64,000 nt of DNA, from the sequence record PQ657772.1. The stretch is one strand, 5' to 3'. Below the pieces are notes generated by a model. The model ran no database searches, had not been told where the DNA came from, and was given only the letters and a program-made list of their open reading frames with translations. A program made the translations under genes and the position numbers. The stretch comes from Escherichia phage EC.P1. Below are positions 1 through 64,000 of this stretch, piece by piece. The first letter of the stretch is position 1, and the number at the start of each line of letters is the position of its first letter.

Positions 1-213
1 TAACGCCTTTGTACTGTCTATATAAATTCAACTGCGTATATTGCCTTTGATCAAGAATTGATCAGAATTATACGCCTTATGCTAAATTGATCCAGTACTT
101 TTTGATCATTTATTGATCGATATTATATAGTTACATTTGTGCACCCTATGGGTTAGTGACGTTCTCGTCTTGATGTAAGTATTATGCCAGTACTGGAGGA
201 TATTGTCAATAGA

Positions 214-417
214 TTATTTTAATTTTTTTCTGTCATTGATTAATGCTTTCAGTACTATACTAATAACTTGCAATGATTCATCAATGACAATGAAATTATT
301 CTCTTTCATTAGATGATAGTTACCATTGATTGTATATTCTAACGAGTACTGTTTACGTTTAATTTTTGATAATGTTTCTATTTGTTTTTGTACTGATTTC
401 ATGCTAATCATTGTCAA
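214..417 (-). CDS. hypothetical small early protein
   Basis: 67-aa ORF, first of a same-strand run of small genes. Confidence 0.5.
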   Translation of the reverse strand: MTMISMKSVQKQIETLSKIKRKQYSLEYTINGNYHLMKENNFIVIDESLQVISIVLKALINDRKKLK

Positions 418-516
418 ACGTCCTGTAACGCATTCTAACGAGATAAACGGTTGAGTACTGGCATTGTATAGGGTAAATGATTATAGCCCACCAGCGTTAA
501 CCAGTGGGCTATAATA

Positions 517-660
517 TTACATCTTGCGGATAATCTTAACAGTATCTTTCACCGATTTACCGTTTTGCTGACATTGCTCGATCATCGCGTATTGTTCTGC
601 GGTCAGATCCTCGCCAGTTTTTGCCAGTACTGCGTCGATGAATGAATCCAGTGCGATCAT
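517..660 (-). CDS. hypothetical small protein (47 aa)
   Basis: hand-called ATG ORF; TTGACA-N16-TATAAT promoter upstream on minus strand (~700-740). Confidence 0.4.
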   Translation of the reverse strand: MIALDSFIDAVLAKTGEDLTAEQYAMIEQCQQNGKSVKDTVKIIRKM

Positions 661-750
661 TTTGTTTCTCTCTTAGGTTAAGTTAACTACTGTTTATAAA
701 ACTTATTATACAGTACTATCAAACGTTGTCAATAGTACTGGTAATATATT

Positions 751-930
751 TTAGCGGTAGTCGTCGTATGCTTTATTCACCTGGCGAATGTAACTTTCAA
801 AGGCTTCGTCTACCGTTTCATACTCCCGAACATAATCACCATAGGAAACTACATACATACCTTTTTGATCTTCAAACGTCATGATGATAGAATCCAGACC
901 AACGATTTCAGTTTTTGCGATGATAGCCAT
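751..930 (-). CDS. hypothetical small protein (59 aa)
   Basis: hand-called ATG ORF; minus-strand promoter at ~965-993. Confidence 0.45.
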   Translation of the reverse strand: MAIIAKTEIVGLDSIIMTFEDQKGMYVVSYGDYVREYETVDEAFESYIRQVNKAYDDYR

Positions 931-1013
931 TTTTTAATTCCTTAGTAGTGTAGTTGATAAAAGTTATTATGTCAGTACTATCAAACTATGTCAATAGTAC
1001 TGTGATAATATTT

Positions 1014-1226
1014 TTAGTTAATGATAGTCAGTGTAAAATTGTAATCACCGCAGCGATATAGCACGTTATTCCCAAATGTCCCAACTAATCGCACATCACA
1101 CAAAACGCCGGTTTTTTCTTTTACTTCCTTGATACTTGTAACTCCTGTAATATCTTTATTAAAGTATTCATGATCTGAAAATAAAACTTGTTTTGCATTT
1201 TTTAATTTCGACCGGATATTAGCCAT
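1014..1226 (-). CDS. hypothetical protein
   Basis: 70-aa ORF; promoter 1281-1308 and 5' hairpin 1249-1268 upstream. Confidence 0.55.
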   Translation of the reverse strand: MANIRSKLKNAKQVLFSDHEYFNKDITGVTSIKEVKEKTGVLCDVRLVGTFGNNVLYRCGDYNFTLTIIN

Positions 1227-61202: not shown

Positions 61203-61255
61203 CGTTAAATCCTCTTGTCAGTTATTGCGGTACGAAGCTATTATACTGCCATTTA

Positions 61256-61699
61256 CTATTTGGAGTCAACACATTTCAACAAGTATTTTTCTATGTATCT
61301 TATATGTGATGGTGGTAACAGTAAGTTTTCGTATCTAACCCTGTACACACTACAATCACCTAGATGAAAGTGACTGGTAGGATACAAGTCAGTTCTAATA
61401 CTAACACGTTTACGATTATCAGTAAAGTTAATTAATGATTTTGGATTGTTATTAGCATGAGTTCTTACAAAGTATTCAATTTCATTGAGTGCTTTTTCGT
61501 CGTATACATACTTGTCAAACACACCTAGTGTAAAGTACCTTGGATGGTACATATATGAGAATAACAATGCAGGAATATACTTCTTTATCCCTTCGTGTTT
61601 TGCAATAGCTGAAGCATATGCAAAATGTGATGCATCAGAGAAGATGTTAAGAAAAATGAAATATGACACTAATAAACCTAGAATCAGCAAAAGTGTCAT
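61256..61699 (-). CDS. hypothetical membrane-anchored protein
   Basis: MTLLLILGLLVSYFIFLNIF. Confidence 0.55.
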   Translation of the reverse strand: MTLLLILGLLVSYFIFLNIFSDASHFAYASAIAKHEGIKKYIPALLFSYMYHPRYFTLGVFDKYVYDEKALNEIEYFVRTHANNNPKSLINFTDNRKRVSIRTDLYPTSHFHLGDCSVYRVRYENLLLPPSHIRYIEKYLLKCVDSK

Positions 61700-62160
61700 T
61701 CAAAACCTCTGTATTTTTCATATACTTCAACACATTCCATGATCTTGTCATCATCGGTCATGTCATAACCCTGAAGAAATTCTTCTTTATCAACCTTAGC
61801 AGCCATCATGTCATCATCCGAGATCCTCGAATCATAGAATGTGTACATATCTTTATAGTACTGCTTGTTGTGCTGTTCATCCTTAACCTTAGCATACCCA
61901 GCACAAAACGATGGCGATTTGACTACATTCCATTTATGCTTTTTGATAGGCTTATCATTAGCATGTTTTTCACGGTATTGCTGGCGGTAACGTTCACGCA
62001 TCTCAGGCATGTATTCTTCAGCAGTACGTTTTGGTTGGGCTTTCCCTGTTCCAATCGTCTTGATTGTTTGACGCTGGTCTTCCGCATGTACTGGTGCAAC
62101 AAAGCAGGAAGTACTGAATACAACAGCAGTGATTACTAGAAAGTGTTTAAACATAATCAA
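61696..62160 (-). CDS. secreted protein (signal peptide)
   Basis: MIMFKHFLVITAVVFSTSCFVAPVHA. Confidence 0.6.
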   Translation of the reverse strand: MIMFKHFLVITAVVFSTSCFVAPVHAEDQRQTIKTIGTGKAQPKRTAEEYMPEMRERYRQQYREKHANDKPIKKHKWNVVKSPSFCAGYAKVKDEQHNKQYYKDMYTFYDSRISDDDMMAAKVDKEEFLQGYDMTDDDKIMECVEVYEKYRGFE

Positions 62161-62384
62161 ACCTCTTTTACAATAATGTCGATTTGCACAGGAATAGCAA
62201 TCTCACTGTTGCATGAATAAACATCGGCACAGTACTCAATATCTAGTACTTCATAGTATTTTTCAAAGCCACAGATTGTAAGATTCAACGTAGCACCAAT
62301 AGCTGGCAATACGGGAAAGGATAAAAATGCAATTTTAGAATTAAATTCTTCATTAATATCTTGATATACAGTGGCAGTAATCAT
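62157..62384 (-). CDS. hypothetical protein
   Basis: 75-aa ORF. Confidence 0.5.
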   Translation of the reverse strand: MITATVYQDINEEFNSKIAFLSFPVLPAIGATLNLTICGFEKYYEVLDIEYCADVYSCNSEIAIPVQIDIIVKEV

Positions 62385-62965
62385 AATGGTAACTCCTGAA
62401 GTGGTTTAATAATACTCAGTACTGGGTGATTTTCAATCATTGGTCGCCCTGGTACACCTGTTAGCACAACTGGAATCGAACTAATGTCTTTTACATAGTT
62501 GAATCCCTCAAATGTGAATTCTTGCTTTTTCTCATTATACAATACCCACAGAATAACGTCAGCTTTTTTCTGTATATTTTTTAACTGTCGAGTACTAACA
62601 CATGGTCCAAAGTCGGTCCACGATTTGTACTTGATACCTTTCACTTCAATTCTTAAGTTGTTTACTTTGATATCACATTCCCCATCACGTCCATCACTTT
62701 GGAACGCTGGATCGATGTTAAGTGCAATACCTGAATAGTTTTCAATTTCATTAAAAAGTACAAATGAAGCATGTTCACATACCATACCAACAAAATGACT
62801 GTGAGCGTGATTAAACCCATACGGCGATTTACTTGCAGGTGCAAGAATTTTATATCGTTCGGATTTCTCAATTGCTTTAGCCATAAAAGAATCAGCTTCA
62901 TCTTTGTATAGCTTAACAGTCATTTTACCATTTTTCAGTACTAAACGTTTTTCTACAACACTCAT
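62381..62965 (-). CDS. hypothetical protein (first gene of the minus-strand block; promoter TTGACT-N17-TATACT upstream)
   Basis: 194-aa ORF. Confidence 0.6.
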   Translation of the reverse strand: MSVVEKRLVLKNGKMTVKLYKDEADSFMAKAIEKSERYKILAPASKSPYGFNHAHSHFVGMVCEHASFVLFNEIENYSGIALNIDPAFQSDGRDGECDIKVNNLRIEVKGIKYKSWTDFGPCVSTRQLKNIQKKADVILWVLYNEKKQEFTFEGFNYVKDISSIPVVLTGVPGRPMIENHPVLSIIKPLQELPL

Positions 62966-63081
62966 AAAATCCCCTTATTGATATTCCATTTAAGTATACG
63001 TCAAAAACACAACTCAGTCAAGGTGCTTTTTTACCTATCTAGAATAAATACGTTATAATAATTATACCAATGGAGGGATGA

Positions 63082-64000
63082 ATGTCAAGATCGATTGCTG
63101 CTGCTGGACAATATAAGTTCGGTGAATGTGGATATGTAGTCGATGGTGCAATTCTCAACGATGGGACTAAACTCAAAAATGTTCGAATCTATCGTCAGAG
63201 AAGCCATAGATTATATGATTTACTTGATCCTGTAAGTAATGTAATTTATCGTAAAGTACAAATTACAACAAAGGATATACAAGGATATCAATTAAACTAC
63301 AACAAAACTAATGACCAAATCCTAAGTGAAATAAGAAAGAACTCTTTTTTCGTAAGAGGATACTCAGATGCTAAACTTGAATCAGATCCTACTGGGTTTG
63401 TTTATAAGTTTCTTTTGCACAAAACAATTCTAGGTAGTTCACAAACACTATATAATATGTACACCCCTGAATGCGGGATTATAGATAGAGATATAGACAA
63501 CATCCTTATGTTCCCAACGTTCGTAGGTGATGATTTGGTAGGTGGTCGCCTATTCAACGCAGGTTCAGCCATTGATACAACTGGAATGCGTATTACCGTT
63601 ATACTTCCTGACGGAACCGAGTACTTCACAACTGAAATAATTGATGATGTTTTTAGTATTCCAGTTGATCCAATTACTCAATCCGGTAAAGGAACCATCA
63701 TACTCACTTCTGACATATATAATACCAAAACTATTGAATTTGATATACTAGAAAGCGGCGAAGATATTGACTTCGTTACTTCAGTACTTCTATCTCAGTT
63801 TGAGTACACGTCCGATGGTATGTACGTGGCAACTGTACCAGCTACTGTGCATGAACGTGGTGAGTATCTTGCTCTACAAGCATACAGTGGTGATTTATTC
63901 CAAATTGGAGTAGACCTCATTGTAGATCCTAGCGGTAATATTACTGTGTACCAAACTGATGATGCTCCAATCTCATTGAGTATTATTGGTAAAACCTTAC
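63082..64000 (+). CDS. hypothetical protein, 3'-truncated by window end (plus-strand block begins here)
   Basis: ATG at 63082 after GGAGGG; open to the last base; not in ORF track because there is no stop. Confidence 0.6.
   Translation, partial: MSRSIAAAGQYKFGECGYVVDGAILNDGTKLKNVRIYRQRSHRLYDLLDPVSNVIYRKVQITTKDIQGYQLNYNKTNDQILSEIRKNSFFVRGYSDAKLESDPTGFVYKFLLHKTILGSSQTLYNMYTPECGIIDRDIDNILMFPTFVGDDLVGGRLFNAGSAIDTTGMRITVILPDGTEYFTTEIIDDVFSIPVDPITQSGKGTIILTSDIYNTKTIEFDILESGEDIDFVTSVLLSQFEYTSDGMYVATVPATVHERGEYLALQAYSGDLFQIGVDLIVDPSGNITVYQTDDAPISLSIIGKTL

Follow-up and report, generated by a model that had tools for sequence, protein, structure and literature searches.

AGTACT, a highly over-represented palindrome of RaK2-like jumbo phages: distribution and possible readers

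AGTACT in a 64-kb stretch of jumbo-phage DNA

The 64,000 nucleotides analyzed here (positions 1-64000 of sequence record PQ657772.1, Escherichia phage EC.P1; hereafter the window) are strewn with the palindromic hexamer AGTACT, a ScaI site, whose abundance, distribution and possible reader are the subject of this study. By megablast the source of the window is an Asteriusvirus jumbo phage, positions 36-48 kb being 98.8% identical to Escherichia phage fEgEco12 (PP777464, 374,733 bp) and ~89% identical to 121Q. The window corresponds to ~299.9-363.9 kb of fEgEco12, on the reverse strand; its gene annotation was carried over from that phage via protein matches, and the complete fEgEco12 genome was pieced together from annotated stretches for counting. 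The fEgEco12 terminal repeat and physical ends have been set by PhageTerm and confirmed by digestion (PMC13070987); in the fEgEco12 record, whose position 1 maps to window position 11693, the physical left genome end, both copies of the repeat have the same sequence. The window comprises the following gene blocks:

1..11693, minus strand: a portion of the 20,993-bp direct terminal repeat (right-hand copy), with small early genes that each have their own sigma-70 promoter
11996..16793, minus strand: tandem array of ~18 paralogous open reading frames (ORFs) of ~60 aa, with the top coding-region AGTACT density (34 sites over 4.0 kb, or 8.4 per kb)
16897-33490, plus strand: tandem run of thirteen paralogous RCC1-like beta-propeller proteins, each ~370-450 aa
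33.5-64 kb: early or middle genes of small size, among them one for a sigma-70-family factor (57,339-58,307)

AGTACT is the most frequent hexamer of the window, occurring 253 times where dinucleotide-preserving shuffles give 22.2 +/- 4.6 (shuffle maximum 34). An earlier, sequence-only reading of this DNA had proposed an enrichment far above chance, and the excess proves larger than was first claimed. The same reading had the word pervading regulatory regions, which captures only part of its distribution: AGTACT does belong to early promoters and terminator stems, but 72% of the window sites are intragenic, and the word is spread genome-wide and clade-wide. The perfect 12-mer TTCAGTACTGAA occurs 8 times in the window (0.01 expected); the examples first given at 6938, 10096 and 18600 are accurate to within 1-2 bp, whereas those at 8370 and 10610 are off by 10-12 bp.

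1..64000: AGTACT sites, 181 wholly in genes, 69 intergenic and 3 across a gene boundary
6937, 8358, 8657, 10095, 10148, 10620, 11712, 18598: positions of TTCAGTACTGAA in the window
18598..18609: perfect 12-mer within RCC1-paralogue coding sequence, with two further AGTACT at 18572 and 18587

The last of these places the best form of the site inside a gene as well. Intergenic DNA is the more densely occupied (69 sites vs 3.5 expected; 7.5 per kb vs 3.3 per kb in coding DNA); coding DNA holds 181 sites vs 18.3 under a first-order Markov model and vs 41.8 +/- 5.9 (maximum 57) in synonymous-codon shuffles that leave all protein sequences and the pooled codon usage unchanged. The sequence-only reading had named an observed/expected ratio near 1, once promoter and terminator positions were masked, as grounds for abandoning the enrichment; coding DNA, from which all intergenic sequence has been removed, clearly gives the opposite result. 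All three reading frames are used (AGT-ACT 81, xAG-TAC-Txx 61, xxA-GTA-CTx 39), and several of the ~60-aa array ORFs (11996-16793) terminate in AGT-ACT-TAA.

Codon choice in 236 long fEgEco12 ORFs is bent toward the word in each frame: Ser-Thr is written AGT-ACT in 291 of 571 cases (93 expected), Val-Leu is written GTA-CTN in 246 of 482 (96 expected), and Tyr in an xAG-Tyr-Txx context is encoded by TAC in 73 of 93, against a 34% baseline. Dipeptides are biased too in these ORFs, Ser-Thr (571) outnumbering Thr-Ser (411) and Val-Leu (482) outnumbering Leu-Val (366), so that the pressure for AGTACT extends to protein sequence. Neither composition nor codon usage nor protein sequence accounts for the excess.

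Distribution, turnover and symmetry across the clade

AGTACT is also the top hexamer of the whole fEgEco12 genome (1115 vs 117 expected), where every 10-kb bin is enriched and the maxima lie in both terminal-repeat copies; the part of the repeat within the window (1..11693) has the peak density, ~10-19 per 2 kb. Late structural genes distant from the window are ~7-fold enriched, and outside the terminal repeat the density is alike in late, middle and early coding DNA. Other genomes were sampled as stretches of 31-50 kb, with the following AGTACT counts:

121Q: 124 observed, 10.5 expected
RaK2: 125 observed, 11.0 expected
Klebsiella phage OU509535: 79 observed, 10.0 expected
GAP32: 84 observed, 12.4 expected
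CBB: 96 observed, 12.3 expected
Yersinia phage fHe-Yen9-04: 56 observed, 8.3 expected
Xanthomonas phage XaC1: 93 observed, 12.6 expected
T4: 7 observed, 7.7 expected (no excess)
Pseudomonas phage PA5oct (record positions 100001-140000): 1 observed, 11.3 expected (depleted)
Salicola phage SCTP-2: 17 observed, 6.7 expected
E. coli K-12 (50 kb): 3 observed, 4.8 expected

The samples from 121Q to XaC1 in this list are enriched 6.7-12-fold, and two RaK2-like metagenomic contigs from IMG/VR are enriched 12-fold (13 vs 1.1) and 22-fold (86 vs 3.9). The excess is thus common to Asteriusvirus, Alcyoneusvirus, Mimasvirus and Eneladusvirus and to the unclassified XaC1; because it is found in at least four genera and in a phage recorded on Xanthomonas, the trait tracks phage lineage rather than host. 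The contrast with host DNA is ~50-fold, at ~3 sites per kb in the phage vs 0.06 per kb in the E. coli K-12 sample. Convergent use of AGTACT promoters outside the clade was considered and rejected, since four unrelated viral contigs that match the AGTACT promoter pattern are chance matches without AGTACT enrichment. PA5oct has a modest excess of other palindromes (CTGCAG 15 vs 3.6, TCTGCAGA 4 vs 0.4); as evidence for an alternate iterated word in that phage, ~4-fold on 15 sites is too weak to claim.

The abundance of this one palindrome coexists with the loss of others. GCGC is absent from the window (0 vs 43.5 expected), from fEgEco12 (0 vs 245) and from every AGTACT-rich genome sample, with normal counts in PA5oct, SCTP-2, T4 and E. 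coli, and 25 of the 64 palindromic hexamers are never seen in the 375-kb fEgEco12 genome.

AGTACT itself is barred from one region of fEgEco12 outside the window, a block of ~15 kb that contains small ORFs (g057-g111) with no assigned function and is site-free at 20,857-26,616 and 29,016-37,647 (5.8 and 8.6 kb). By chance the longest gap should be ~2.5 kb, and a gap of 8.6 kb has a probability of ~4e-11. The first gap opens within the left terminal repeat, 136 bp from its inner edge, and homologous 121Q DNA (73-88% identity) is likewise site-free, at 5502-9569 and 11800-19384 of its sample. Within the block AGTACT falls below the block's own codon-shuffle expectation, and AGT-ACA is in excess (40 vs 16.2 +/- 3.1 in codon shuffles), with the usual ttC...G flanks; as the change from AGT-ACT to AGT-ACA is synonymous, the block looks like deliberate removal of the palindrome. 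The block shows that AGTACT acts in cis, favored in most of the genome and harmful here, a pattern that a uniform mutational process would not give.

Individual sites are less durable than their density. Codon-aligned late-gene orthologues of fEgEco12 and GAP32, 65% identical in nucleotide sequence, carry 69 and 74 sites, 18 of which are co-positioned, where 0.14 would be expected if the two sets were independent. Positional retention is 26-30%, vs 13-16% for any hexamer (26% vs 13% for fEgEco12 with GAP32; OU509535 gives similar values), and where the encoded amino acids are conserved, 64-69% of AGTACT sites are identical, vs 34-36% of other hexamers. This retention above background is due to a general propensity for writing the word, not to site memory. 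The density of AGTACT is kept up while single positions turn over, and the genomes place the word wherever protein coding permits, about once per 360 bp. Distances between sites follow a near-exponential distribution (mean 362 bp), with a slight excess at 20-24 bp.

The flanks of AGTACT are mirror-symmetric. The window sites prefer C at -1 and G at +1, T at -3 and A at +3; across 977 sites of the non-redundant fEgEco12 genome (the second repeat copy excluded), C(-1) is 2.63x and G(+1) 2.5x background, T at -3/-4 is mirrored by A at +3/+4, and graded preferences reach +/-4. G(-1) and C(+1) are disfavored, each at ~0.5x background; CAGTACTG accounts for 221 of the 977 sites, and among the 16 flank pairs GAGTACTC is found least often (6 of 977). 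The resulting consensus is TTC-AGTACT-GAA and its best form TTCAGTACTGAA. Outside the site-free block, AGTACA (1.38x) and TGTACT (1.42x) show equal, weak enrichment on the sense strand, which retains a duplex-palindrome reading and disfavors an RNA-level or primase-type signal. AGTACT is thereby shown to be recognized as a symmetric word of duplex DNA.

AGTACT in promoters, in terminators and at the genome end

In the terminal repeat, early promoters take two forms, AGTACT-a-TTGACA-N9-AGTACT-g-TATAAT, with two sites, and AGTAC-TTGCAA-N16-TATAAT, in which AGTACT overlaps the -35:

705..739, minus strand: two-site early promoter, with AGTACT at 734-739 and 712-717 and the -10 hexamer at 705-710
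966..1001, minus strand: two-site early promoter, with AGTACT at 996-1001 and 974-979 and CATAAT at 966-971
4360..4395, minus strand: two-site early promoter, with AGTACT at 4390-4395 and 4368-4373
2267..2299, minus strand: example of the second form (AGTAC-TTGCAA, 16-bp spacer, TATAAT), of which there are ~10 in 1-10 kb

The fEgEco12 genome contains 4 copies of AGTACT-a-TTGACA, 12 of AGTAC-TTGCAA and 17 of AGTACT-g-TATAAT (AGTACTGTATAAT, 17), and 121Q has 12 copies of TTGACA-N9-AGTACTGTATAAT, RaK2 8. AGTACT thus stands at fixed positions relative to the -35 and -10, in forms kept in 121Q and RaK2, without being confined to promoters. Published promoter analyses of the clade describe RpoD-like promoters with UP elements and no AGTACT element (PMC5259590). 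The sequence-only reading overstated the matter in assigning the word to nearly every promoter: ~16 of the 20 minus-strand promoters in 1-11.4 kb carry it, but in the whole window it lies within -60..+10 of 26 of 48 intergenic sigma-70-like matches and is lacking from the other 22. A separate promoter class (GGGTTGACTtcgGTCAGCCC...TATAAT), whose -35 lies within a hairpin, never occurs with AGTACT. A repeated cassette, GGGTTGACTtcgGTCAGCCCtttttgcTATAAT, also has its -35 hexamer inside a terminator-like hairpin and no AGTACT, and it resembles the promoter-early stem-loop (PeSL) cassettes of T4-type phages; its -10 hexamers lie at:

~36838, 37421, 42044, 44807, 45586 and 49180, minus strand: -10 hexamers of the GGGTTGACTtcgGTCAGCCCtttttgcTATAAT cassette

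The terminators of the RCC1 array were described as carrying AGTACT in every case, which is nearly right, as at least one exact AGTACT arm is present in 11 of 12 hairpins and both arms in 4. These hairpins are paralogous copies of one cassette and therefore not independent events.

19229..19248, plus strand: RCC1-array terminator GCCAGTACTtgAGTACTGGC, AGTACT in both stem arms
25251..25276, plus strand: RCC1-array terminator, AGTACT in both stem arms
26477..26504, plus strand: RCC1-array terminator, AGTACT in both stem arms
33495..33521, no strand: bidirectional terminator AATCCAGTACTattatAGTACTGGATT, between convergent genes

Around the physical genome end the sites are concentrated in non-coding DNA:

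10014..11995, no strand: ~2-kb non-coding stretch across the terminal-repeat boundary, with ~15 high-quality (T)TCAGTACTGA(A) sites
10071..10167, plus strand: 44-nt direct repeat in two identical copies lying 53 bp apart; each copy contains AGTACT-N7-AGTACT with a perfect TTCAGTACTGAA
10791-10942, minus strand: iteron array of 8-bp period (GGCTAAAC/GGCTAGAT/GGATGGCT)
11606-11639 and 11802-11869: GTAATCA repeats ~10 bp apart, flanking the physical genome end at 11693
11712..11723, no strand: perfect TTCAGTACTGAA, 19 bp outside the terminal repeat and adjoining the future genome end, with a second AGTACT at 11736

The non-coding stretch holds 4 of the window's 8 perfect 12-mers. The non-redundant fEgEco12 genome has 22, of which 5 lie in the first 4.8 kb and 1 at the junction that precedes the second copy of the repeat; given the local density of sites, the closeness of the 12-mer at 11712 to the genome end could be chance. 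The iteron array and the GTAATCA repeats are candidate packaging or origin elements; an Rfam search of window positions 9-17 kb gave no match.

Several further features of the region were recorded. Chi (GCTGGTGG) has 34 top-strand copies in fEgEco12 vs 1.9 expected, an ~18-fold excess; each terminal-repeat copy contains ten, in a single orientation, the one that would block RecBCD entry from the right genome end. In the window, CCACCAGC lies at 488, 5014, 11097, 32158, 40092, 51122 and 57090, and GCTGGTGG at 5076, 11109 and 18329. The GC skew of 11996-16793 is +0.16 to +0.18 (plus strand), opposite to that of all other minus-strand gene blocks in the window. Each RCC1 paralogue is followed by the same cassette of terminator, TATAGTATAAT-type promoter and Shine-Dalgarno sequence, and the copy content of the array differs between the EC.P1 window and fEgEco12. 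One window protein has an AAA/STAND NTPase match in Pfam (best E = 4e-6, nSTAND_NTPase5); the batch scan gave no protein name, and the match is probably to the 497-aa ORF at 42763-44256 (minus strand), annotated in fEgEco12 as a "virion structural protein".

Possible readers of the word and what they would mean

We lean, tentatively, toward regarding AGTACT as a selected, lineage-specific iterated palindrome of RaK2-like jumbo phages that is read by a symmetric DNA-binding factor, probably phage-encoded; among the functions proposed in the sequence-only reading, a protein-binding site is the best supported, by the symmetric graded flanks, the fixed promoter positions and the site-free block. 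We infer that such a reader would be a dimeric protein, most likely one that the phage encodes or that the virion carries, and that it would coat or label phage DNA, host DNA offering ~50x fewer sites per kb. In the early promoters of the terminal repeat, where sites flank the -35 (about -42..-37) and take up the spacer next to the -10 (-19..-14), their occupancy would govern host RNA polymerase, most simply by turning early transcription off as the factor builds up. The gathering of the strongest sites in non-coding DNA at the physical genome end suggests a role in handling that end (entry, protection or packaging), and the two-copy terminator stems may be a by-product of an abundant self-complementary word.

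Several observations weigh against this reading. Apart from the sigma factor and HNH/NUMOD4, Pfam recognized no helix-turn-helix (HTH) family and no other family of DNA-binding proteins in 123 window proteins, and none in 146 further early or middle proteins, with ~180 remaining proteins, mostly replication and structural, outside the scan; three proteins annotated as "transcriptional regulators" have no Pfam match. A strict 6-bp palindromic core is more usual for restriction-modification enzymes than for HTH dimers. Neighboring sites show no helical phasing at 10-11 bp and marginal phasing at 21-22 bp, which together with their near-exponential spacing gives no sign of cooperative arrays. At conserved Ser-Thr pairs, the use of AGT-ACT in a second genome is about equal whether or not the first has AGT-ACT, and this lack of positional memory means that individual coding sites are not conserved operators. 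Finally, selection and a biased-repair drive lead to similar steady states; the case against a drive is made by the undepleted one-mismatch neighbors and by the existence of the site-free block.

A further-reaching idea, which we consider possible but rather doubtful, is that AGTACT is a positive "self" label of an unmodified jumbo-phage genome, ~1100 copies of which would be read by a clade-specific protein that tells phage from host DNA. Such a label could serve protection, compaction or DNA entry in addition to the timing of early transcription; it would act beside the loss of GCGC and of 25 palindromic hexamers and beside the oriented Chi packed into the terminal repeats, and the site-free block would be the one domain obliged to escape the reader.

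The remaining explanations differ in what they make of these data. It is extremely unlikely that the excess is only a promoter and terminator consensus repeated in a region dense in small genes: intergenic DNA is indeed the richer, and most terminal-repeat promoters and RCC1-array terminators carry the word, but 181 of the 253 sites are coding, with a 4-10-fold excess there, and the distant late structural genes are enriched as well, so that as a complete explanation this is refuted. A neutral by-product of biased mutation or repair that turns near-cognate words into a functionless AGTACT (an Elhai-type model for the highly iterated palindrome HIP1) would account for sites wherever they are affordable, for the missing positional memory at Ser-Thr and for the similar density in late, middle and early coding DNA; we consider it very unlikely, because one-mismatch neighbors are undepleted (observed/expected 1.1-2.25 in fEgEco12), the conserved ~15-kb block has zero sites, promoter positions are fixed across genera and dipeptide composition is shifted too. 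A drive by very-short-patch or methyl-directed repair in particular was rejected, the neighbors, including the deamination neighbors AGTATT/AATACT (1.35), being mildly enriched rather than depleted. Somewhat less improbable is a word read on single-stranded DNA or RNA (as a primase start, in anti-termination or in RNA stability), the palindrome being an economical way to place it on both strands. CAGTACTG is the minimal overlap that gives CAGTAC on both strands, the phage has its own T4-type primase and genes for recombination-dependent replication, and the site-free block is enriched in sense-strand AGTACA with the same 5' flank. That asymmetry, however, is predicted by codon constraints, AGT-ACA being synonymous and the shuffles already giving 16 vs 2; outside the block, with codon usage controlled, sense and antisense do not differ, and the flanks are mirror-symmetric though ~90% of genes are co-oriented, so strand-specific reading was rejected. 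Known primases read trinucleotides, and we know of no 10-fold hexamer excess driven by them.

A host protein is a very improbable reader: the sole known candidate is SlmA, a nucleoid-occlusion factor that phage DNA might recruit or titrate so as to affect cell division, and whose binding sequence GTGAGTACTCAC shares the AGTACT core and needs G1, T2, a purine at 3, A4 and G5 (PMC3020112). Most phages of the enriched clade infect Enterobacterales, and PA5oct, on Pseudomonas, is depleted for the word. The phage consensus nonetheless breaks SlmA positions 1 and 3, 9 of the 977 fEgEco12 sites come within 2 mismatches of the SlmA site, the flanks G(-1) and C(+1) are among those disfavored, with GAGTACTC the rarest pair, XaC1 is fully enriched, and neither T4 nor the unrelated contigs with the promoter pattern are. 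No SlmA homologue was found in the phage (phmmer best E = 0.16); an SlmA sponge was rejected, and the SlmA version of a host reader is largely refuted, leaving the host protein of the sequence-only reading without support.

The classic recognition form of type II enzymes is a strict 6-bp palindrome, and AGTACT might accordingly be the target of a phage restriction-modification-type enzyme, as the mark of an orphan methyltransferase or the site of a nicking or cutting enzyme. We judge this unlikely, if less so than the alternatives above. The phage encodes one C5 and one Dam-type methyltransferase and many HNH endonucleases, the genome is otherwise heavily restriction-shaped, with 25 palindromic hexamers and GCGC absent, and cutting or nicking could account for a block required to be site-free. 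Graded symmetric flanks to +/-4 are unusual for such enzymes, and the avoidance of host restriction targets that is usual in phages is not seen for AGTACT, 10-fold enriched where the 25 other hexamers are absent. The Dam-type enzyme belongs to Pfam family PF05869, characterized members of which act on GATC. The C5 enzyme (g455, at 29943-30803 of one of the assembled fEgEco12 stretches) aligns over its full 286 aa to the mammalian DNMT3A/B catalytic domain (E = 1e-23), and numerous unrelated phages, among them ICP1 and phages of Bacteroides and Vibrio, have close relatives of it; the enzyme would fit the m5C reported at CpG in RaK2 (PMC3622015), and AGTACT contains no CpG. A link of either methyltransferase to the word is thus unsupported, and no enzyme of known AGTACT specificity (ScaI/Eco255I type) is identifiable from sequence. 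HIP1 and alternate HIPs do co-occur with methyltransferases of matching specificity (PMC4390886), and an orphan enzyme acting on AGTACT would parallel the link proposed for those cyanobacterial palindromes. Ten enzymes, ScaI not included, cut fEgEco12 DNA as predicted in silico (PMC13070987), which indicates that there is no global modification; a search of the literature turned up neither ScaI digests nor methylomes. The proposal of a modification or nicking signal finds no supporting evidence and is unlikely rather than refuted.

Among known systems the closest likeness is to HIP1 (GCGATCGC) of cyanobacteria, whose function is unsolved and for which a role in chromosome organization has been proposed (PMC5861425, PMC4390886). 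Both words are short palindromes over-represented by at least an order of magnitude, within and between ORFs and in all frames, and both are kept across related genomes, other lineages having a different word or none; AGTACT shows the genome-wide excess of at least 10-fold, the use of all frames beyond codon usage and the conservation above background that mark HIP-type sequences. It differs in being a 6-mer, AT-rich rather than GC-rich and viral rather than of a cellular chromosome, in being fixed in promoters, clustered at the genome end and barred from one conserved block, and in that, among the phage proteins screened, only the DNMT3-like and Dam-type enzymes turned up and no methyltransferase recognizable as matching. 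On sequence and replicon kind, and with no such enzyme recognized, we regard AGTACT as an analogue of HIP1, not a member.

The Chi sequence of RecBCD and the DNA uptake sequences (DUS) and uptake signal sequences (USS) of Neisseria and Haemophilus are likewise over-represented words found through coding DNA, and they work by virtue of their density and of the contrast between own and foreign DNA. DUS commonly occur in inverted pairs that form terminator stems, as AGTACT also does; Chi and DUS, however, are asymmetric, orientation-dependent and have known readers, whereas AGTACT is palindromic and ~10x denser (one per 360 bp). In the stoperators of mycobacteriophage L5, TF1 of SPO1 and p6 of phi29, a phage protein binds many sites on its own genome, including early promoters, and shuts off early transcription or organizes the DNA. 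These are functional analogues that differ from AGTACT in site number, symmetry or recognition mode: the L5 stoperators number ~30, are asymmetric and oriented and serve a temperate repressor, and TF1 and p6 recognize modified DNA or DNA bendability, not a strict hexamer. No homologue of the L5 repressor, TF1 or p6 systems was identified in the phage. In PeSL cassettes each small early ORF of an array lies between a strong sigma-70 promoter and a hairpin; cassettes of this hairpin-plus-promoter type are present in the window, but they lack AGTACT, and PeSLs do not account for a word spread across coding DNA. The SlmA site has the same AGTACT core in a 12-bp palindrome read by a dimeric HTH protein of the TetR family (PMC3020112), yet the flanks SlmA requires are those that the phage disfavors, and the phage has no SlmA homologue.

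Phage genomes are known to avoid short palindromes. That this clade does so to an extreme and yet carries one palindrome at ~10-fold over chance points to a strong sequence-specific process, of which we found no description in the literature; the papers on RaK2, CBB and fEgEco12 contain no report of an AGTACT motif. The combination of AGTACT excess and GCGC absence provides a signature for clade members in metagenomes, and picked out the two IMG/VR contigs. ScaI should cut the genome into ~1100 pieces, and dozens of common enzymes have zero sites in these genomes, so the published "restriction resistance" of RaK2 may partly reflect the absence of sites rather than modification. If the self-label idea is true, self would be marked by sequence alone, without base modification or a phage nucleus. 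The word offers an experimental handle on how RaK2-like jumbo phages, which have neither a phage nucleus nor hypermodified bases, manage an unmodified genome of 350 kb, and a viral system in which the unsolved HIP1 question of cyanobacteria has a tractable counterpart.

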